This document shows, piece by piece, positions 3,519 through 22,589 of a stretch of 64,000 bases of DNA; the stretch's first letter is position 1; each line of letters opens with the position of its first letter. Made by a program: the position numbers and the translations under genes. The notes beneath the pieces were generated by a model, which was not told the DNA's origin, did not search any database, and worked only from the letters and a program-made list of their open reading frames with translations. Location: assembly GCA_005879585.1 (NCBI GenBank), contig VBKG01000312.1:4400-68399 (forward strand), read 5' to 3'. The stretch is from Deltaproteobacteria bacterium (GTDB lineage: Bacteria; Desulfobacterota; Binatia; DP-6).

Positions 3519-4700
3519 ATGAGGGGAACGGGACGCGTACTGATGGTGGCGGCGTGGGGCGCGCTCATCGCCTCTGCGGCGGCAGCCAGGACCCACCGGC
3601 CCGAGGCCACAACCGCCGCAACCCAGCCGGCCGCCTACCTCGTTCTCGACGCGGACAGCGGCACCGTGCTCGCCGAGCACGAGGCCCACCGCCGCTGGCC
3701 GCCGGCGTCCATGACCAAGATGATGACCGTCCTCATCGCCATGGAGCGCGTGCAGGACGGCTCGCTGTCGCTCGACACGCCGGTGCACACGTCGGCATGG
3801 GCGAGCCGCATCGGCGGCTCGCAGGTCTACCTCGCCGCGGGCGAGACCTTTCCGCTCGGCGAGATGCTGAAGGCGATCATGATCGCCTCCGCCAACGACG
3901 CCGCCGTCGCCGTGGCCGAGCACATCGCGGGATCGTCGGCCGCCTTCGTCGAGCTGATGAACGCGCGCGCGAAGGCCCTCGGTCTCGCGGACACGACGTA
4001 CCAGAGCCCGCACGGTCTGCCGCCGGGCAAGGGACAGACGGCCGACATCACGAGCGCGCACGACCTGGCGGTGCTCGGGCGCGAGCTCATGAAGTTCCCG
4101 GAGGTGATGCGCTGGGCGGGGATGCCGGCCGCGGGGTTCCGGAACGACACCTTGCAGATGTCGAACACGAACCACCTGGTCCGCACCTATCCGGGCGCGA
4201 CGGGCCTCAAGACGGGCTACTATCAGGAAGCCGGCTTCGAGGTGACCGCGACCGCGACACGCAACGACCTGCGGCTCATCGCCGTCGTCCTCGGCGTCGT
4301 CACCAAGCCGGGGTGTTTTGCAGAAGCGGCCCGCCTGATGAACGACGCGTTCGCCAACTATCGGGTGATTGCTGCGGCGCATCGTGCGGCGGTCGTGAGC
4401 GAGGTACCGGTTGCCGGCGGCACCGACGACCGTGTGAAGGCGCTCGCGACCGGCGACCTCCTGCTGCTCGTGAAGCGGGCCGAGGACCGCGGAATCGTCG
4501 TCGAAGCGCGCGTGCCGCGGCTGCTGCAGGCGCCGGTCAGTCGGAGTCAGCCACTCGGTGATGTGGTCGTGCGTCGCGGTGCCGAGGAGCTCGGCAAGGT
4601 CACGGTCGTCGCCGATCGGGACGTCGAGGCGACCGGCTGGCTCTCGTGGCTCTGGAACCGAGCGTTGTCGGGGCGGACGGCTCGCAGCGCGGCGCGCTGA
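3519..4700 (+). CDS. Serine-type D-Ala-D-Ala carboxypeptidase (PBP5/6 family)
   Basis: Signal peptide; SxxK (SMTK), SxN (SAN) and KTG motifs. Confidence 0.9.
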   Translation: MRGTGRVLMVAAWGALIASAAAARTHRPEATTAATQPAAYLVLDADSGTVLAEHEAHRRWPPASMTKMMTVLIAMERVQDGSLSLDTPVHTSAWASRIGGSQVYLAAGETFPLGEMLKAIMIASANDAAVAVAEHIAGSSAAFVELMNARAKALGLADTTYQSPHGLPPGKGQTADITSAHDLAVLGRELMKFPEVMRWAGMPAAGFRNDTLQMSNTNHLVRTYPGATGLKTGYYQEAGFEVTATATRNDLRLIAVVLGVVTKPGCFAEAARLMNDAFANYRVIAAAHRAAVVSEVPVAGGTDDRVKALATGDLLLLVKRAEDRGIVVEARVPRLLQAPVSRSQPLGDVVVRRGAEELGKVTVVADRDVEATGWLSWLWNRALSGRTARSAAR

Positions 4701-10756: not shown

Positions 10757-10792
10757 GCACACCCGGGCGGCGCCGAGGGGAGAGGAGGGGCG

Positions 10793-11893
10793 ATGGTGAC
10801 GCAGGCCGGGCTCGTGGTCGTGCTCGCGATACTGGTGCTCGCGATCGCGGTGGCGGTCTTGGTCGCCGCCCGACGGGGAGGAGCCCTCGGGCTCGTGCAG
10901 CAGCAGCTCGAGGCGCTGCGCACGCAGGTCGGCCAGGCGCTCGGCGGGCAGGCGGAGCTCCTCGGGCAGGAGATCGGCCGCCTGACGGCGCAGCTGAACG
11001 AGCGGCTCCGCGAGAGCGGCGAGCTCGTGCAGCGCTCGCAGACCTCCGTCGGCGAGCGCCTCGACCACACCGCCCGCGTCGTGGGCGAGGTGCAGCAGGG
11101 GCTCGGCGAGCTGCGCGAGGCGACGGCGCGCGTCCGCGACATCGGCCGCGACGTCGTCTCGCTGCACGACATCCTGCGGGCGCCGAAGCTGCGCGGCGGT
11201 CTCGGCGAGCTCCTGCTGGGCGACCTGCTCGCGCAGGTGCTGCCGGCGCGCCACTTCACCTTGCAGCACACGTTCCAGAACGGCGAACGCGTGGACGCCG
11301 TCGTCCGGCTCGGGCCGGCGCTGGTCCCGGTCGACGCCAAGTTCCCGCTCGAGGACTTCCGCCGGCTGCTCGAAGCGGGCGACGACGAGACCCGGACGCG
11401 GGCGCGGCGGGCGTTCGTCGCCCGCGTCCGCAAGCACATTGACGACGTCGCCACCAAGTACATCCTCCCCGACGAGGGCACGTACGACTTCGCGCTGATG
11501 TACGTCCCCGCCGAGAACGTCTACTACGAGGCCATCGTGCGCGACGACGGCGGGAACGACCGCGAGCTCTCTGCCTACGCCCTCGAGCGGAAGGTGATTC
11601 CCGTCTCGCCGAACTGCTTCTACGCCTACCTCCAGGCGATCGTGCTCGGGCTCCGCGGACTCCGGATCGAGGCGCGCGCGCAGGAGGTCGTGGGACAGCT
11701 CGCGCGGCTGGCGGGCGACCTCGGACGGCTGCAGGACGATTTCCGCGTGCTCGGCCGTCACGTGACCAACGCGGCGCAGGCACATGCCGCGGCCGATCGC
11801 CGCCTCGATCGCCTGACCGCGAAGCTCGCCGAGATCGCGGCCGACGAGAATGCGGAAGAGCCCGAGCAGCAGCCCCTGCTCCGGGCGCAGTGA
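10793..11893 (+). CDS. rmuC: DNA recombination protein RmuC
   Basis: N-terminal TM helix, long coiled coil, conserved RmuC C-terminal nuclease-like region (MYVPAENVYYE, PVSPNCFYAYLQAIVLG). Confidence 0.9.
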   Translation: MVTQAGLVVVLAILVLAIAVAVLVAARRGGALGLVQQQLEALRTQVGQALGGQAELLGQEIGRLTAQLNERLRESGELVQRSQTSVGERLDHTARVVGEVQQGLGELREATARVRDIGRDVVSLHDILRAPKLRGGLGELLLGDLLAQVLPARHFTLQHTFQNGERVDAVVRLGPALVPVDAKFPLEDFRRLLEAGDDETRTRARRAFVARVRKHIDDVATKYILPDEGTYDFALMYVPAENVYYEAIVRDDGGNDRELSAYALERKVIPVSPNCFYAYLQAIVLGLRGLRIEARAQEVVGQLARLAGDLGRLQDDFRVLGRHVTNAAQAHAAADRRLDRLTAKLAEIAADENAEEPEQQPLLRAQ

Positions 11894-11905
11894 CGGAGGG
11901 CAAGG

Positions 11906-13054
11906 ATGATCAGTGTCCCGGCGATCCGCCTTCACCAGTTCGGCGTCGTGCTCTACCAGGCGATCCTCGGCGCCCGCGACGTCGACCGGCTCGTCCGCTT
12001 CGAGGTGCTCTCCTACGAGGGGGGCGACGCGGCGCACGGCGCCCGGCCGGGCAGCGGCAAGCGCAAGGGGAAGGCGAAGCCGTCGCGCGTGAACTGGGAG
12101 CTCCTCGAGAAGCGCATCGCGGCCAGCGCCGAGGCATACCAGCGGCCGGTCATCCGCAAGAAGATCTCCGACCTCGTCGAATACTACCTCCAGTGCTCGG
12201 AGATCGGGAACCTGCCGGCGATCCCCGGGGCGGTCCTGCTGGTGGCGGACCGGCGGCTCGAGTTCACGCCGACCAGCTCGCATCGTGTGCTGGGCGTGCT
12301 CGAGATCCCCGGCGAGGAGGGCGCGCTGCGTGCGCTCGACGGCCAGCACCGGCTGCTCGCGCTGCACCAGATGATCACGGCGGGGCAGGCGGAGGAGGTG
12401 CAGGTGCCCGCCGTCGTGTTCGACCGCCTGACGCCCGATCAGGTCGTCGAGCTGTTCGTCACGATCAACGCCAAGCACACCAAGCTGAATCCGTCGCACC
12501 TGATCAGCCTCGCCGGCCGGCGCCTCTACCCGGACCCGGAGCTCGCGGCGAGCCACGACATCATCCGTGCGCTCAACGAGCACGGCGATTCGCCGTTGCA
12601 CGGCGAGATCAAGATCTTCGGCGTCGGGCACGGCCGCGTCGCGCAGGCGCCGCTCGCGGAGGAGCTGAAGGGCATCTTCACCGCCCTCGACGCGCTCGGG
12701 GGACGGCAATCGGATCGGTTCCGCGACACCGCCCAACGGTTCTTCCTCAACTACTTCAAGCAGATCGCGCGTGTCTTTCCGCGTGCCTGGGTTGGACGCA
12801 AGTACAGCATCAAGACCGGCACCGCGTTGCGAGCGTTCCTGCGCGTGGTGCCCGACGTGTTGAACGCGATCCGCAGGAACGGCGGCGACGTGCTCGATGC
12901 GCACGCGATCGGGCGCGTGATCGCGCCGTGGGGCGAGCTCGTCGGCGACAGCCGCTTCGAGACCGAGAGCGAATGGCGCCAGAAGCAGGCAGGCGGCACG
13001 CGCGGCACGGTCGAGATGCTGGCGCGCGAGCTACGGGCGGCGCTCCGCGGCTGA
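11906..13054 (+). CDS. DGQHR-domain protein (DndB-like, ParB/Srx superfamily)
   Basis: Literal DGQHR motif (ALDGQHRLLALHQ); 382 aa; 12 nt after the rmuC stop. Confidence 0.85.
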   Translation: MISVPAIRLHQFGVVLYQAILGARDVDRLVRFEVLSYEGGDAAHGARPGSGKRKGKAKPSRVNWELLEKRIAASAEAYQRPVIRKKISDLVEYYLQCSEIGNLPAIPGAVLLVADRRLEFTPTSSHRVLGVLEIPGEEGALRALDGQHRLLALHQMITAGQAEEVQVPAVVFDRLTPDQVVELFVTINAKHTKLNPSHLISLAGRRLYPDPELAASHDIIRALNEHGDSPLHGEIKIFGVGHGRVAQAPLAEELKGIFTALDALGGRQSDRFRDTAQRFFLNYFKQIARVFPRAWVGRKYSIKTGTALRAFLRVVPDVLNAIRRNGGDVLDAHAIGRVIAPWGELVGDSRFETESEWRQKQAGGTRGTVEMLARELRAALRG

Positions 13055-14123: not shown

Positions 14124-15104
<981 letters not shown>

Positions 15105-15341
15105 GGTCACGGCCCGATCCACCAGCGGCTGGCGTGGACCTGGACGGCGTCGAACGGCATCACGCCGGCGACGATAACACGCGAAGCGACGGCGGCGCCA
15201 TGCAGGTCGCGCTTCCGCATCCGCGGGAGATGCTCGGTCCGACGAATGCGTCGCACCATCTGGACGCCGACCGCGCGCCGGGGGTAAAAGGCGCCGAGCT
15301 CGACGTGCGGGCCGGCCTCGACGCCCGCGGAGGAGGAAGGG

Positions 15342-16677
15342 ATGGCGGTGGGTCGAACGGTCGGTCGCAACGAGCCGTGCCCGTGCGGAAGCGGCAGGAA
15401 GCACAAGCGGTGCTGTCTCGCCGCCGGCGTGGAGATCGACGGCGGCGTGGGCGGACTTCCGCGGCCTGGAGGCCCACGAGCCGACCCCGTCCGACGAATC
15501 GGAGTTCGAGCAGCTCTTCATCCCGTGGCTCGTCTTCAACTGGACGGCCGACCCGGACGACGCCGAGACTCCGGACGACTGGCCCGACAGGCCGCTCGCG
15601 CTCGCCTGCCTGGAGCGGGAGCCCTCCCGATTCGACACGTTCGCGCGCCGCTTCCTCGAGGTTGCATGCGCGCGGCCCTACAGCTTCTACGTCGTCACCC
15701 GGGTAGAGCGGGGCCGGAGCCTCGGGCTGCGGGACGTCATCACGGGACGGGAGTTCGACGTCCTCGAACGCCAGGCGACGGCGCAGGCAGAGGCGGGCCT
15801 TCTCCTCTTCACCCGCGTCGTGCCGCTCGACGGCGCTGCCATCATGGTCGGTGGCGCGCCGCTGCTGATACCGCCGACCTACCGCCTGCGGCTGATCGAG
15901 CTCCGCGAGGACATGGCCGCGGGTGGCATGCCGGACGAGAGCGCCTTGCACGACTGGGACATCGTGCTCCGGGAGACCTACTTCGGGATCAAGCACGAGG
16001 TGTACCACCCGCGCCCGCCGGAGCTTCGCAACACCGACGGCGAGCCGCTCCTCCCGACCACGCTCCACTTCGTGCTGGCCTGCTCGCCGCGCGAGGCCTT
16101 CGATCGCCTCAAGTCCCTCGCCCTCGAGGCGTCCGATGAAGAGCTGCTCACCGATTCCACCCGCGATCCGGCGGGCGAGCTGCGCGCCGTGCGGTTCCCC
16201 TGGCTCAAGCGGGGCAACGCGCAGCACCGGAGCTGGGACAACACGATCATGGGGCACATCGCCATCGACGCGAGCGCTCTCGTGGTCGAGGTGAACTCCG
16301 AGCGGCGCGCGCGCGAGGTCCGCGCCGAGGTGGAGAAGCGGCTCGGCGACCTCGCGGTACTGCAGACGAGCGTCGCTGAGCCGCTGGCCCCCCAGCTCGA
16401 GGAGGCGCGTGCGGAGCGGGAGCCGAAGGGTCGCCTCGAGGAACCGCCCGAGATGCGCGAGGCGCTGCGACACTTCATCGCCGAGCACTGGGAGAGCTGG
16501 CTCGACGAGAAGGTCCCGGCGCTCCGCTTCGAGACCCCGCGCGAGGCGGTGCGGAGTCCGGAGGGTCGAGAGCGGCTGGAGGCGCTGCTCGCCCAGTTCG
16601 AGTGGCAGGGCAGGCGCGCTCCCGAGCCCGAGCTCGCACCCGACGTCGCGGCCCTGCGGGCACGGCTGGGGCTGTAG
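15342..16677 (+). CDS. SEC-C motif protein, apparently frameshifted (+1) after the SEC-C motif
   Basis: Strong RBS GGAGGAGGAAGGG before ATG 15342; N-terminal [13 protein letters not shown] in frame 0; protein-like sequence then continues only in frame +1 from about 15440 to 16677, with no start codon in that frame before 15820. Confidence 0.6.
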
Positions 16678-16689
16678 CTCCGGGGGGAC

Positions 16690-17110
16690 GTCGGGCGCGC
16701 GCCGGTTCCGCACACGCCGGCCTGGACCCTGGTGCGTGGCGACGACAGTGCAGCGCTCCTGCGTCGAGGCCAGCGCCTTGTGCACCTCGCGCGGCGTCGT
16801 GAGCACCCGGGCATGATATCTGTCGATCATGCCGATGGGCGGCGACGCGTGCGGCCGCGGCGCGCGCCTCGGTCGCGAGCTGGCTCGGGCTCGCCGCCCA
16901 TGCCGACGCGTTTCGGCTTTCGCGGGCGATCTTCGCTGCCCGGGATGTTCGCAACGTCGGCAAGCGGCTCCTCGTCGCCCGGCTTCGCCATGAACCGCGA
17001 GCATGCCATGGTCCTCGACGTGGCGCGGAAAGCCCTGCCCGTGCGGATCATCGATGAGCGTCCCGTGAGGCCGGCGGTGGGCAGATGGCCCAGGAGGTCG
17101 CGCGCGTTCG
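16690..17110 (-). pseudogene. Decayed partial copy of the IS200-like transposase
   Basis: Minus strand encodes ..EDHGMLAVHGEAG..PPIGMIDRYHARVLTTPREVHKALA, paralleling QDDHVHLIAEAEH..WDDRYHARALATPREVHNALA of the intact copy; about 85% DNA identity at 16770-16830 vs 17340-17400. Confidence 0.5.
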
Positions 17111-17129
17111 ACGCAAGCGCCCCGCGATG

Positions 17130-17801
17130 TCATCCCCTCTTTGGCCGCCCGTCCGCGACGATCAGCCCGTGTCGCTGCCAACCGATCCGGGCGAGCCAGG
17201 TATGCGCGACTGCGACAGGCCGCGGCCCGCTTTGGTCCGCCGACCGCGGCGGGCGCCAGCCGGCAAACCAGGGAGCTGAAGAGCATGGATCGATATCGGC
17301 TCCGGTGTGGCCGTGTCGCCGGAAGTTCAGCAGCACATAGGCGAGCGCGTTGTGCACCTCGCGGGGCGTCGCGAGCGCCCGGGCGTGATACCTGTCGTCC
17401 CAGACTCTTCCGCGCCGGCCGAGAGCGCGGTTTATCGCGTGGGCAAGGCGGATCGCCAGGCCGCGGACGCCGCTCGCGAGCGCCCGCGTGTGCTCGGCCT
17501 CGGCGATCAGATGGACGTGGTCGTCCTGGACTGAAAATTCGACGATCCGGAAGTCGGCGTGTGAGGAGACGGCGAGCGCGCGGCGGACGGATGGGAACAC
17601 CCGGTCGCACCGAAGGCAGCGGATGGCTGTGACCGCGCGCAGCGTCACGTGCACGGGATGGGTGGCGACATGCTGAGGCCGACCCCGATGCGGCACCCCA
17701 GGCCGGCGTCCGGGCGTCCGTTTCCGGCCGGCACCGGGGCGGCGCCCGCCCCACGTGCGGGCGAGGATCGCGAGAGTGAGTTGAGCGGGACGCCGGGCCA
17801 T
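17130..17801 (-). CDS. IS200/IS605-family Y1 (HuH) transposase, long form (COG1943 / RAYT-like)
   Basis: 223 aa; HuH motif DDHVHLIAEAEH and catalytic-Tyr region WDDRYHARAL; AT-rich promoter patch upstream. Confidence 0.8.
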   Translation of the reverse strand: MARRPAQLTLAILARTWGGRRPGAGRKRTPGRRPGVPHRGRPQHVATHPVHVTLRAVTAIRCLRCDRVFPSVRRALAVSSHADFRIVEFSVQDDHVHLIAEAEHTRALASGVRGLAIRLAHAINRALGRRGRVWDDRYHARALATPREVHNALAYVLLNFRRHGHTGADIDPCSSAPWFAGWRPPRSADQSGPRPVAVAHTWLARIGWQRHGLIVADGRPKRG

Positions 17802-18133
17802 GAACTTGATTAGGCTAATACCATTCTACGTTTGCGTTGTCAAGAGGCGGCGGACGTGGGGCGCGTGCTATCTCGGAAATCATAAGATCAGGCGACCTGA
17901 GACTCGCCGGATTTCGAGGCCGGCCCGCAATGCAGACGTCGGAGGATCGGCGTAGGCCGCCGCGGGCGGCGAGCTGTCACGCGTCGCACGGCGCGCGACG
18001 CTGCCGGCCTTCCGCCGCTCGGCGTCGCGGTCCCCCTGATCGTGACGGCGCTGTCGCTTGGACACCGTGGGCGCAATCGCGCTCCGCCCTGGACCCTTCG
18101 CGCGCGGGCGCCGCCGTCAACAGGCCCGCGTGT

Positions 18134-19033
18134 CTACGACTTCCGGAACCGCGGCGGGCGCTTCTCTAAAAAGGCCTTGCGGCCTTCCTCGGCCTCTTCC
18201 GTCCCGTAGTAGAGCTCGAGCGCGCTGAAGCCGAGCTCGGTGATGCCGCCGAGCTGCTCCGTGTCCGCATTGAACGACTGCTTTGCGAGCCTGAGTGCCG
18301 TCGGGCTCTTCTCGAGGAGCTCGCGGCACCAGCGTTCCGTCTCGGTACGAAGTTGCGCGGCCGGGACGACGGCGTTGACGAGGCCCATCGCGAGCGCCTC
18401 CTGCGCCGTGTACTGCCGGCAGAGGTACCAGATCTCCCGCGCCTTCTTCTCGCCGACGATGCGCGCCAGGTACGCGGTGCCGAACCCCGGATCGACGCTG
18501 CCCACGCGTGGCCCGACCTGTCCGAAGATCGCCGTGTCGGCGGCAATCGACAGGTCGCACAGCACGTGGAGCACGTGACCGCCGCCGATCGCGAAGCCGT
18601 TGACCATCGCGATCACGGGCTTTGGAATCGCGCGGATCACTCCGTGAAGCCCGTGGACGTCCATGCCGAGGCCGCTGGCGCCGCCGTAGCCGCTCGTGCC
18701 GCGCTCGCGCTGGTCGCCGCCGGCGGAGAAGGCCTTGTCGCCCGCGCCGGTCAGCACGGCCACGCCGACCGCGCGATCGGCCCAGGCGGCGCGGAAGGCG
18801 CGGATCAGCTCGTCGACGGTCTGGGAACGAAACGCATTCCGCACGTCGGGGCGGTTGATCGTGATCCATGCGATCCCGTCGCGCGCGTCGTAGAGGATGT
18901 CTTCGAAGGTCACGCGCTTCCCTTCAGCCAGCCGTGGGCCCTTGTCAACACGGGGCGGCGAGCGCAAGGTGTCGCGACGACGATGCTCGAGACGGCGCTC
19001 CACGCGCACCTCGCGGCCCGCGGCGCGACCCAC
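18134..19033 (-). CDS. menB: 1,4-dihydroxy-2-naphthoyl-CoA synthase-like crotonase (MenB family)
   Basis: [26 protein letters not shown] is typical of MenB; maximal ORF given, true start probably internal (TTG 18967 or GTG 18913), which would leave a divergent promoter gap before the next gene. Confidence 0.8.
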
Positions 19034-20023
19034 GCGGACGACCGTGGCGTCCTCTTACCGCGTCAGTTCGGCGACGCCGCCGGCGAGTACCGAGCGCTCC
19101 GCGAAGGCGCGGCGCTCGTCGACCTCGGCTTCCGTACCGTGCTCCATGCACGCGGTGCCGACCGCGTGACGTTCCTCCAGGGTATGTTGTCCAACGACGT
19201 GGCGGCGCTCCGGCCCGGCGACGGGTGTCCGGCTCTGCTCCTCACCATCCAGGGACGCGTCGTCGCCGACGCGCGCGTGGCGGCGACCGACGACGCGCTG
19301 CTCCTCGACGTCGACGTGCGTGCCCGCGAGGCCTTCGTCGAGGCCCTCGAGCGCCTGATCGTCGCCGACGACGTCGAGCTGGTCACGCCCGAGACCAGGG
19401 TCGCGCTCGTCGGCGTCGAAGGGCCGGACGCGGAGCGCCTCGTCGGCCGGCCGCTCGCCCCGTATGCGCACGCCGAGACGGACGTCACCGGCATCGCGGT
19501 CCGTGCGGTGCGCGCGAGCGAGGTGCGCGGTTCCGGCGTTGTGTTTCACGTCGCCGCCGAACGAGCTCCTGCACTCTGGGACGCGCTCGTGGCGCGCGGC
19601 GCACGGCCATGTGGCATGGACGCGCTCGAGGGCCGCCGGGTGGAGGTCGGGGTGCCGCGGGTGGGGCTCGACATGGACCTCGGCACGCTCGCGCTCGAGG
19701 TGCCCGTCGACGAGGCGCTGAGCGCCACCAAGGGTTGCTATCTCGGCCAGGAGGTCGTGGCGCGCGGGACCGCGCGCGGCCACGTGAACCGCAAGCTCAC
19801 CGGCCTGCTGATCGACGGCCCGGTGCCGCCGGGCGGCGTGCCGCTCGTGCGCGAGGGGAAGGAAGCCGGCCGGCTCACGACGGTCGCGTGGGCTTTCGGC
19901 GCCGGCGCGCCCGCCGCTCTCGGGTTCGTCCGGCGGGAGCATTGGGAACCGGGGACGGAGCTGCGTGTCGAGCACGGCCATGCGGTGACCCTCGTCCGCG
20001 TCGCCGCGCTGCCACTCGCCTAG
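18983..20023 (+). CDS. GcvT-family folate-binding protein (YgfZ-like)
   Basis: 346 aa from ATG 18983; aminomethyltransferase fold with a C-terminal barrel. Confidence 0.75.
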
Positions 20024-20061
20024 GCTTCCCCGTCCGGCGGCTTTCTGGTACGGGACCGCCC

Positions 20062-20205
20062 ATGGCGATGCAGCTCGGCAAGCGGTACCTCTGCGACACC
20101 TGCGGCACGGAGGTCCTCTGCAACAAGCCGGGCGGGGGCGGCCTCACGTGCTGCGGTCACGAGATGAAGCTGAAGGAAGCGAAGCCGCTTCCGTCCTCCG
20201 ACTGA
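20062..20205 (+). CDS. Desulforedoxin-like mini-protein
   Basis: 47 aa; GKRYLCDTCGTEVLCNKPGGGGLTCCGHEM matches desulforedoxin [30 protein letters not shown]; hidden in the tail of a spurious long ORF. Confidence 0.7.
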   Translation: MAMQLGKRYLCDTCGTEVLCNKPGGGGLTCCGHEMKLKEAKPLPSSD

Positions 20206-20272
20206 CCGCCGCCGAGACGCTCGTCGAGAACGCACGGGTCGTGACGCTGACACTCGTCGGCGGCAGGGTGGC

Positions 20273-21004
20273 GTGGCCGGCATGAGGCCGTTCTCGACCC
20301 TTCGCTACGAGAAGCGGGGCGCGATCGCGATCGTGACCCTCGACCGACCCGCGAAGCTGAACGCGTACAACGTCGCCATGCGTGACGATCTCTACGAGGC
20401 GCTCGGCGCGGCGGACCAGGATCCGGACGTCCGCGCGCTCGTGCTGCGCGGTCGCGGGCGCGCTTTCTCCACGGGCGGCGACGTGAGCGAGTTCGGGACG
20501 GCGCCGTCTCCGCTCGTCGCGCGCTTCGTCCGCTGGCAGCGCGACGTGTGGGGCCGGCTCCTCGATCTCCGGGCGGCGACGATTGCGGCCGTCCACGGCT
20601 ACGCGGTCGGCGGGGGGATGGAGATGGCGCTCTGCTGCGATTTCTGCCTCGCAGCGGACGATGCGCGCTTCGCCCTGCCGGAGACCGGTCTCGGTATGAT
20701 CCCGGGCGTCGGGGGGACGCAGACGTTGCCCCGGCGAGCCGGTGTCGCGCGCGCTCTCGACCTCGTGCTGACGGGTCGGGGACTCGACGCAGAGGAGGCG
20801 CGCGCCGCGGGGATCGTGCTGCGCGTCGTTCCACGGGCGCGGCTCGACACGGCCGCACTGGCGCTCGCCCGCCGGCTGGCTCGTCTGGAGCCCGCCCTGG
20901 TCGCGGGTGTGCGACGTGCGGTGCGTGCGGCACACGACCTGGCGCTCGCGGACGGCCTCGACCTCGAACGACGGCTCGCCGCCGCAACTCGCCGCCGTAC
21001 TTGA
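20273..21004 (+). CDS. Enoyl-CoA hydratase/isomerase
   Basis: Crotonase fold (AVHGYAVGGGMEMALCCDF). Confidence 0.85.
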   Translation: MAGMRPFSTLRYEKRGAIAIVTLDRPAKLNAYNVAMRDDLYEALGAADQDPDVRALVLRGRGRAFSTGGDVSEFGTAPSPLVARFVRWQRDVWGRLLDLRAATIAAVHGYAVGGGMEMALCCDFCLAADDARFALPETGLGMIPGVGGTQTLPRRAGVARALDLVLTGRGLDAEEARAAGIVLRVVPRARLDTAALALARRLARLEPALVAGVRRAVRAAHDLALADGLDLERRLAAATRRRT

Positions 21005-21038
21005 GCGGCGGCGCGCGGCCGCGCTAGAAGCGCCGCCG

Positions 21039-22589
21039 ATGAACACGCTCGGCTTCCTCGCGATCCCGGCCGAGATCGTCCCCGACCAGGAGGCGGTGGT
21101 GACCGAGGGGGGCCGGTTCACGTACGCCGAGACGCTGTCGCGCGTGCGGCGCCTCGCGAGCGCGCTCGCGCGCCTCGGCGTTCGGCCGGGCACGCGCGTG
21201 GCGGTTCTCCACACCAATTCCCACCGTTACGTCGAGGCCTACTACGCCGCGGCGATGCTCGGCGCCGTCTTCATCCCACTCAACTACCGTGCGAAGCGCC
21301 CCGAGCTCGAGCACATGCTGCGCGCAGGCGGCGTCGAGTTGGTGCTCGTCGGCGCGCGTTATCTCGAGCATCTGGACGCCGTCCGCGGCGCTCTCCCGGC
21401 GCTCCGGACGGTCATCGGTCTCGACGGCCCGGCGGGGAGCCTGCCGGCCTACGAGGAGCTCGTCGCCGAGGCCGCGGAGCATGCGGGCGAGGCAGGCGTC
21501 GAGGACGACGACGTGACGATCCTCATGTTCACGAGCGGCACCACGGCACTGCCGAAGGGCGTCATGCTCACGTTCGGCGACTTCACGGCCTACGTGACCG
21601 CCAACGTCGAGCTGGCCGACGGGACGCCGCGCGGCGCGGCGCTCCTCTGCGTGCCGCTCTACCACATCGCCGGCGCGACCAACATGATGACGACGCTCTG
21701 GACGGGCCGCCGCCTCGTGCTCATGCCGCAGTTCGAGCCCCGGGGCTGGCTCGACCTCGTCGAGCGCGAGCGCATCAGCCACGCGTTCCTCGTCCCGACG
21801 ATGCTGAAGCAGCTGCTCGACCAGCCGGATCTCGAGCGCCGCGATCTTTCGAGCCTGGAGATCCTCTCGTACGGCGGAGCCGCCATGCCGTTCCCGGTCA
21901 TCCGGCGCGCGATCGAGCGCTTTCCGAAGACCGTCGGCTTCGTGAATGCGTTCGGCCAGACGGAGACCACCTCGACGCTCACGCTCCTCGGCCCCGAGGA
22001 TCATCGGCTCGAGGGCACGGCAGAGGAGATCGAGCGGCGCACGCGCCGGCTCACGTCGATCGGCCGTCCGCTGCCCGACGTCGAAGTGCGGATCGCGGAC
22101 GACGACGGGCACGCGCGCGGTGCCGGAGAGGTCGGCGAGATCTGGGTACGGACGCCGCGTGTGATGAAGGGCTACGCCGGCGCTGGAGGTTCACCGCTCG
22201 TCGCGGACGGATGGCTGCCGACGCGCGACATGGGCTGGGTGGACGAGGACGGCTATCTCTACGTCGCCGGGCGCAAGGACGACATGATCATCCGCGGCGG
22301 GGAGAACATCGCGCCGGCGGAGGTCGAGGCCGTCCTGCAGTCGCATCCGGCGGTCGAGGAAGCGGCCGTCGTCGGCGTGCCGGACGTCGAGTGGGGCCAG
22401 CGGGTGGCCGCGTTCGTCGTCGTGCGCCCGGGCGCTTCCCTGTCGCCCGACGCGCTCACGGACTTCTGCCGCGAGCGGCTCGCGAGCTTCAAGAAGCCCG
22501 AGCTCGTCCGCTTCGTCACCGAGCTGCCGAAGAACCCGATGGGAAAGATCCTCCGCAAGGACCTGCGCGCGGAGCTCGGCGCCGCGTGA
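21039..22589 (+). CDS. AMP-dependent acyl-CoA synthetase/ligase (possibly MenE-like)
   Basis: AMP-binding motif FTSGTTALPKGV; 516 aa. Confidence 0.9.
   Translation: MNTLGFLAIPAEIVPDQEAVVTEGGRFTYAETLSRVRRLASALARLGVRPGTRVAVLHTNSHRYVEAYYAAAMLGAVFIPLNYRAKRPELEHMLRAGGVELVLVGARYLEHLDAVRGALPALRTVIGLDGPAGSLPAYEELVAEAAEHAGEAGVEDDDVTILMFTSGTTALPKGVMLTFGDFTAYVTANVELADGTPRGAALLCVPLYHIAGATNMMTTLWTGRRLVLMPQFEPRGWLDLVERERISHAFLVPTMLKQLLDQPDLERRDLSSLEILSYGGAAMPFPVIRRAIERFPKTVGFVNAFGQTETTSTLTLLGPEDHRLEGTAEEIERRTRRLTSIGRPLPDVEVRIADDDGHARGAGEVGEIWVRTPRVMKGYAGAGGSPLVADGWLPTRDMGWVDEDGYLYVAGRKDDMIIRGGENIAPAEVEAVLQSHPAVEEAAVVGVPDVEWGQRVAAFVVVRPGASLSPDALTDFCRERLASFKKPELVRFVTELPKNPMGKILRKDLRAELGAA

Follow-up and report, generated by a model that had tools for sequence, protein, structure and literature searches.

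A SEC-C/DUF7986 gene lacking 92 nucleotides between short direct repeats in a contig of a Binatia bacterium

The DNA analysed here, referred to as the window, is a stretch of 64,000 nucleotides (positions 4,400 to 68,399, forward strand) of contig VBKG01000312.1, which belongs to the assembly GCA_005879585.1 of a Deltaproteobacteria bacterium (GTDB lineage Desulfobacterota, Binatia). Its G+C content is 71.5%. The locus of interest contains a gene for a protein with a SEC-C metal-binding motif, read in two different frames. It is bounded upstream by an aldo/keto reductase gene, the synteny of which is kept in all relatives and a close relative of which bears the label Candidatus Binatus sp., and it is followed downstream by a transposase gene, beyond which lies an enoyl-CoA hydratase gene. 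On the other side of the aldo/keto reductase gene, a gene of the RmuC family is directly followed by one for a DndB-like protein with a DGQHR domain (TMB52509.1; the pair occupies 10757–13054 on the plus strand); this pair, which is kept in sibling contigs, could be a module related to DNA modification or defence. The features of the locus are the following, in positions of the window:

14127 to 15104, minus strand: aldo/keto reductase gene, divergently transcribed, an exact match to TMB52512.1 and the upstream boundary of the locus.
15329 to 15341, plus strand: purine-rich, Shine-Dalgarno-like sequence GGAGGAGGAAGGG, read directly; the ATG at 15342 adjoins it, and it is the same in 12 of 12 close relatives.
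15342 to 15443, plus strand: 5' piece of the SEC-C gene that has been kept (native codons 1–34, frame 0), recognised from the Pfam SEC-C match and the relatives.
15342 to 16139, plus strand: frame-0 open reading frame as it stands, 265 amino acids, made up of 34 native and 231 out-of-frame residues.
15441 to 15444, plus strand: deletion junction at which 92 nt are missing, placed by DNA alignment, the 12 relatives and blastn break points.
15445 to 16677, plus strand: 3' remainder of the SEC-C gene (native residues 66–475 and the stop codon), legible in frame +1 only and lacking its own start codon.
16762 to 16825, minus strand: fragment left by a second, decayed copy of the Y1/REP-type transposase, 21 amino acids (DRYHARVLTTPREVHKALAST; tblastn E=4e-5).
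16857 to 16861, no strand assigned: junction of a second window-specific deletion, 75 nt missing, from alignment and blastn (compare positions 11619–11678 of the related locus L085).
17133 to 17801, minus strand: intact gene for an IS200-like Y1/REP-associated tyrosine transposase, 223 amino acids (Pfam Y1_Tnp, E=1.4e-6).

An earlier note on this DNA had reported a ribosome-binding site and an ATG that open a SEC-C motif in frame 0, followed by a remainder that is legible only in frame +1, and both observations held. The frame-0 head matched the Pfam SEC-C model PF02810 with 37.9 bits (E=1.6e-9; the cutoff of the model is 20.4 bits), the Cys-x-Cys...Cys-Cys motif corresponding to residues 9–26 (15366–15419). 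After residue 34, frame 0 turned into a string rich in Arg, Pro, Gly and Ala that ran on to the TGA at 16137, and the translation of frame +1 was protein-like up to the stop codon at 16675–16677. The third-position GC passed from frame 0 (0.85–0.90) to frame +1 (0.95) in intervals starting at about 15400–15430, i.e., around the junction. We could also verify that frame +1 has no start codon before 15820: ATG, GTG, and TTG were all absent over 15178–15820, between the stop codon at 15175–15177 and the GTG at 15820. An internal restart at this GTG, which would yield a C-terminal fragment of 285 amino acids, was considered and rejected; the sequence that precedes it (CTCTTCACCCGCGTC) contains no Shine-Dalgarno sequence or ribosome-binding site, and the exact product was absent from the protein collection. 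In GenBank, the frame-0 open reading frame is annotated as a hypothetical protein (TMB52565.1, E6J56_15880).

The frame +1 remainder matched 129 proteins, most of which have 475–490 amino acids and an N-terminal SEC-C motif. The best match (P0001, 475 amino acids) was 99% identical to it (E=2e-269), and the 5' piece was identical to residues 1–34 of P0001 and of another protein, P0127. Taken together, the two pieces were 99% identical to P0001, in agreement with the proposal that a single gene has been interrupted. We compared this gene with its counterparts in 12 loci that are ~99% identical to the window (L001 and L083–L093) and come from Angelo meadow soil metagenomes; they comprise ENA CRIT18-1 scaffolds, six ENA k141_ contigs, and the NCBI assemblies GCA_009772775.1 and GCA_009772655.1. 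All 12 loci, which were independently assembled, contained an unbroken gene of 1428 nt (475 amino acids) that includes the 92 nt, and the deletion allele was seen in exactly one assembly, that of the window. Clustering at 90% identity places the intact protein in a group of 55 members, 13 of the 15 listed having 475 amino acids, while the cluster of the frame-shifted product has a single one. A search of ~5.8 billion protein cluster representatives with this 265-residue product returned only itself. The 33-mer that spans the junction had 0 matches in JGI metagenome contigs, in which the intact allele itself was found only 3 times, so that this absence says little. Scanning genome contigs with the back-translated SEC-C motif gave, among the matches listed, only distant relatives (23–30% identity) and sequences sharing the motif alone.

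When aligned with the contig encoding P0001, the window showed one gap of 92 nt directly after ...GAGATCGACG, the gene spanning 1336 nt in the window versus 1428 nt in the contig. The position of the junction is ambiguous across a 2-nt microhomology, GC (15442–15443), and falls inside the interval 15416–15448 to which the note had assigned the shift. Comparison with orthologues, which the note had recommended to locate the indel, therefore gave the expected placement (15441–15444), but the simple +1 frameshift or one-base indel had to be given up, since what the window lacks with respect to every close relative is 92 nt, or 31 codons minus one base. The relatives carry an imperfect direct repeat of 9 and 8 nt, ATCGACGGC and ATCGACGC, the two copies of which start 93 nt apart. 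Those relatives in which Gly34 is encoded by GGC have GAG ATCGACGGC CAG ...(deleted)... CTC ATCGACGC GGCGTGG at this place, and the window has GAG ATCGACGGC GGCGTGG. The loss amounts to 92 nt and not to 93 nt because the left copy of the repeat is one base longer, and as a consequence 31 codons (Q35–A65, QRYRLRHAEGIVVNAVLDHIRRRYGRDLIDA) are gone and the rest of the gene is shifted to frame +1. The alignment shows that the lesion is no indel of one base and no programmed frameshift, and correcting a single base would not restore the protein. The reverse possibility, that the 92 nt represent an insertion in the relatives, was ruled out, as the segment is present and conserved at the protein level across phyla.

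The missing codons 35–65 were present in 35 of 35 aligned homologues, down to 33% identity, and they include two nearly invariant residues of the alignment, R40 and E43. AlphaFold modelled P0001 with a mean pLDDT of 87.1 and a pTM of 0.74; in this model, the segment forms most of a helix (residues 25–57) and the start of the next one (residues 60–74), with pLDDT values of 84–96. Conservation and model both indicate that this piece is functional sequence with which the protein would not be expected to dispense. The columns of the SEC-C motif are invariant in the same alignment, and the motif is fused to the N terminus in all 35 full-length homologues, which disposed of the option, left by the note to a comparison with orthologues, that the SEC-C peptide is a separate small gene. 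The window has this N-terminal motif, and its frame +1 remainder is similar to the homologues over the full length of the body (the DUF7986 region and the C-terminal helical domain); the single uninterrupted open reading frame of ~475–490 codons, comprising the helix with R40 and E43, is absent from it. Judged by these features, the window holds what would be a disrupted copy and not a functional member of the family.

The homologues are annotated as 'SEC-C metal-binding domain-containing protein' or 'YecA family protein' and occur in metagenome-assembled genomes of Deltaproteobacteria/Binatia, Acidobacteria, Actinobacteria, and others. They share with the pieces found in the window the N-terminal motif CPCGSG(K/R)K(Y/H)KxCC and the whole body. 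The assignment of the latter to DUF7986 (PF25948) is derived from precomputed Pfam matches on the homologues, many of which have both PF02810 and PF25948; a literature search found DUF7986 mentioned in no paper. Some homologues also have a PRiA4_ORF3 domain. The last ~60 residues resemble the Xre/MbcA/ParS domain (PF09722, DUF2384), which is the toxin-binding domain of the corresponding antitoxins. The similarity is weak to borderline, with E=0.005 for the remainder in the window, below the Pfam threshold, and 26.0 bits (cutoff 24.5) for the homologue P0011. Unlike these antitoxins, the homologues have no RES or ParT-type toxin gene as a conserved neighbour. In the intact protein, the SEC-C motif would accordingly be followed by a DUF7986 body and then by a helical domain at the C terminus, the likeness of which to DUF2384/Xre-MbcA-ParS is weak to borderline.

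The first ~25 residues of the family contain the same zinc-knuckle motif as the C-terminal metal-binding domain of SecA and the SEC-C motifs of YchJ and YecA. A profile search of the PDB identified YchJ (9l6b, E=7e-9) and SecA (1ozb, 1sx0, 1tf2), the PDB sequence profiles matching the SEC-C motif only and none of them the body. In SecA, YecA, and YchJ, the SEC-C motif is C-terminal. The motif is all that they have in common with the window family, in which it is N-terminal and sits on an unrelated body of ~450 amino acids. In other phyla, as observed with the loci L097, L099, L101, and L102, the homologues are often found close to toxin-antitoxin and defence genes, with no neighbour being conserved. 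Examples are PhdYeFM/PIN, UPF0175/DUF3368, HicB, a SEFIR/TIR protein of 1053 amino acids, Gp49/HTH, HEPN-AbiU2, and Y1 transposases. This suggests that the SEC-C/DUF7986 family belongs to a flexible, island-borne gene pool. Our best guess would be that the intact protein acts as a metal-binding and protein-binding accessory factor of the flexible genome, which would fit the gene being dispensable and lost in one lineage.

The transposase encoded downstream of the SEC-C gene also matched the NCBIfam model REP_Tyr_transpos (E=5.4e-11, below the cutoff of the model). The decayed transposase copy mentioned in the note does exist: the 21-residue remnant shares 76% identity with the C-terminal portion of the nearby Y1/REP-type transposase and corresponds, at the DNA level, to a 59-nt direct repeat (D1) that is 88% identical to 17339–17397 and lies 572 nt away. 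The transposase is polymorphic in the population, being present in L001, L085, L086, and L087 and absent from L083 and, according to the blastn alignment, from L090; L088, L091, and L092 align at 97.8–99.9% over the remnant and the transposase region, where their gene calls are partial or cut by contig ends. Downstream of 16853, six relatives (L085–L088, L091, and L092) match the window at 97.8–99.9%, with 0 mismatches from 16853 onward in L085, L087, and L088, and in all six the SEC-C gene is intact, with its 1428 nt. Farther on, a block at 17537–21496, which covers the enoyl-CoA hydratase and GcvT-like genes, was only 95.8% identical to L083 (WNGI01000155.1), with 39 gap openings, and was flanked on both sides by DNA with 99.5% identity; it may be a recombined or haplotype-specific segment.

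The second window-specific deletion is situated in non-coding DNA of the transposase remnant, 1.4 kb downstream of the 92-nt deletion. The 75 nt concerned are present in L085, L086, and L001, and L088 has the segment minus 7 nt. On either side of the junction lies one copy of an imperfect direct repeat of ~15 nt, GGCCGCGG(A)GCGCGC / GGCCG(G)CGGCGCGCGC, and blastn indicated at this place a 15-nt overlap (16853–16867), with 60 unaligned query bases in L085, L086, L087, L091, and L092 and 55 in L088. Such a deletion fits a locus decaying under a deletional bias. Indel polymorphism among strains that are ~99% identical is also seen in the intergenic stretch that separates the SEC-C gene from the aldo/keto reductase gene (15107–15341). 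A 42-nt insertion follows ~15158 in L086 and L088, and a 53-nt insertion with the palindrome CTGGCGGCGGAACCTTAGGCCGCCAG, a possible REP-like element, follows ~15244 in L088 and L089. In this same stretch, ~100–200 nt upstream of the gene, the sibling scaffolds L085 and L087 are interrupted by N-gaps.

A programmed +1 ribosomal frameshift joining the two frames into a shortened functional protein would account for the intact ribosome-binding site and ATG, and for a downstream frame that is open and undecayed. We give it practically no credence, because no orthologue has a frameshift, all of them (12 of 12 close relatives and 35 of 35 homologues) being single open reading frames with the 31 extra residues, and because the joined product would still be deprived of the conserved core helix. 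No shift-prone or stop-codon context was seen, by eye, at GAC GGC GGC GUG GGC, and frame 0 continues to 16137. When the locus was held against +1 frameshifts of the prfB type, we found neither a site conserved in orthologues nor, on inspection, a shift-prone site accompanied by an in-frame stop or a rare codon and by an upstream stimulator, and an Rfam scan of 14500–18500 gave only a chance-level match (E=0.7) and no regulatory or recoding RNA. That the deletion is real and is owed to the nearby Y1/REP-type transposase or to IS activity, as the note had envisaged, also appeared very improbable. Such a cause would suit a locus that is a hotspot of rearrangements, where an intact Y1 transposase gene, the decayed remnant of another copy, and small palindromic insertions that vary between strains all occur within 2 kb. 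IS activity is nevertheless not implicated, because the relatives that have the identical transposase and the remnant, six in number, carry an intact gene. Furthermore, the breakpoint is 1.3 kb away from the remnant and 1.7 kb away from the transposase, and the two native gene segments are joined there directly, with no IS sequence, element end, hairpin, or target-site duplication. The deleted segment, folded as DNA together with its repeats, was no more stable than shuffled sequences (z=0.70), which also led us to reject hairpin-assisted slippage.

The reading that we favour, and that we consider probable, is that a recent, strain-specific slippage deletion produced a pseudogene. In its support, close relatives ~99% identical to the window have an intact orthologue, 12 of 12 with the 92 nt, and conserved residues as well as the reading frame are lost in the window. 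It has to be weighed against an artefact of the assembly or of the consensus, in which case the organism would have an intact 475-codon gene and the gaps of 92 and 75 nt would have arisen from a strain-heterogeneous, low-coverage assembly or from scaffolding. This is a possibility to be taken seriously, though we hold it to be unlikely. It would explain why the deletion allele occurs in one assembly only, and why two deletions found only in the window lie 1.4 kb apart when the ~16 kb of flanking DNA are essentially free of any: blastn against the relatives showed a single gap of 3–4 nt over ~10 kb on the upstream side and no gap over 6 kb on the downstream side. The N-gaps and the 42- and 53-nt indel polymorphism beside the gene in sibling scaffolds mark the locus as difficult for assembly and point in the same direction. 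So does the mosaic of SNPs in the gene of the window, the 5' half of which is of the L083 type (positions 413, 417, 423, and 824) and the 3' half of the L085 type (1221–1287), and which could be explained by recombination or by a chimeric consensus. The remainder of the gene, moreover, has as its sole private substitution a synonymous one (CTG>TTG at 15946). Since there is no further decay, the lesion has to be very recent if it is real at all; as far as its sequence tells, the remainder shows no independent sign of relaxed constraint, and this counts against a real pseudogene. A study of Angelo meadow soil metagenomes, to which the window would also belong judging by sample names and locus tags, used 2x250 Illumina reads, IDBA_UD, and a coverage of ~10x per genome per sample, and described populations with high within-sample diversity and frequent recombination (PMC7305173). 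Against an artefact, the two junctions offer no more than 2–3 nt of exact microhomology, within imperfect repeats, which is far below the k-mer or overlap length of an assembler, so that k-mers spanning the junctions must have existed in the reads. There is also no N anywhere in the window nor any other trace of gap closure, and the assembly is otherwise clean with respect to indels. On balance, we infer that the deletion exists in cells and not only in the assembly, and that it arose by slippage.

Replication slippage between short direct repeats is known from the classical deletions of the lacI type, and bacterial pseudogenes are subject to a deletional bias. The deletions of the window resemble such cases by their end points, which lie in direct repeats of 8–9 nt for the first and of ~15 nt for the second. 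They differ from the classical case in that the repeats of the first deletion are imperfect (1-nt indel), resulting in a loss of 92 nt instead of an in-frame loss of 93 nt. The likely course of events would be as follows. The ancestral state would have been a conserved gene of ~475 codons with SEC-C, DUF7986, and C-terminal helical domains. In the lineage of this assembly, 92 bp would have been lost between the imperfect short direct repeats ATCGACGGC and ATCGACGC, most likely by slipped-strand mispairing or by another form of microhomology-mediated illegitimate recombination. This event would have removed codons 35–65 and left one extra base, placing everything downstream in frame +1. The intact ribosome-binding site and ATG would then yield a zinc-knuckle head of 34 residues followed by 231 nonsense residues, and the 410 native downstream codons, having no start codon, could presumably not be initiated, which would make the gene a recent pseudogene in this strain.

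A bolder version, which we regard as rather doubtful, takes both deletions as real and sees in these 1.5 kb a natural deletion hotspot that acts through microhomology in a Binatia-like population of uncultivated soil bacteria. It would then catch the first step in the loss of a dispensable SEC-C/DUF7986 accessory gene, which has polymorphic copies of the REP-type transposase and small palindromic insertions on its flanks, and the intact allele would still predominate in the same meadow. If this were true, the locus would offer a snapshot of gene loss in the wild.

In sum, this is an ordinary disrupted gene, resulting from a 92-nt deletion between short repeats or from a local flaw of the assembly, and it is neither linked to the transposase nor a case of recoding. 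For annotation, TMB52565.1 ought to be labelled as what is left of a conserved, here disrupted 475-residue SEC-C/DUF7986 gene and not as a 'hypothetical protein', an error made possible by the long spurious open reading frames that occur in DNA with 71% G+C. If the deletion is real, it adds another case to the loss-of-function deletions mediated by repeats, here in an accessory gene of a soil population that is heterogeneous, and involves no new mechanism. The intact family is widespread and, independently of the broken copy described here, may merit study in its own right.
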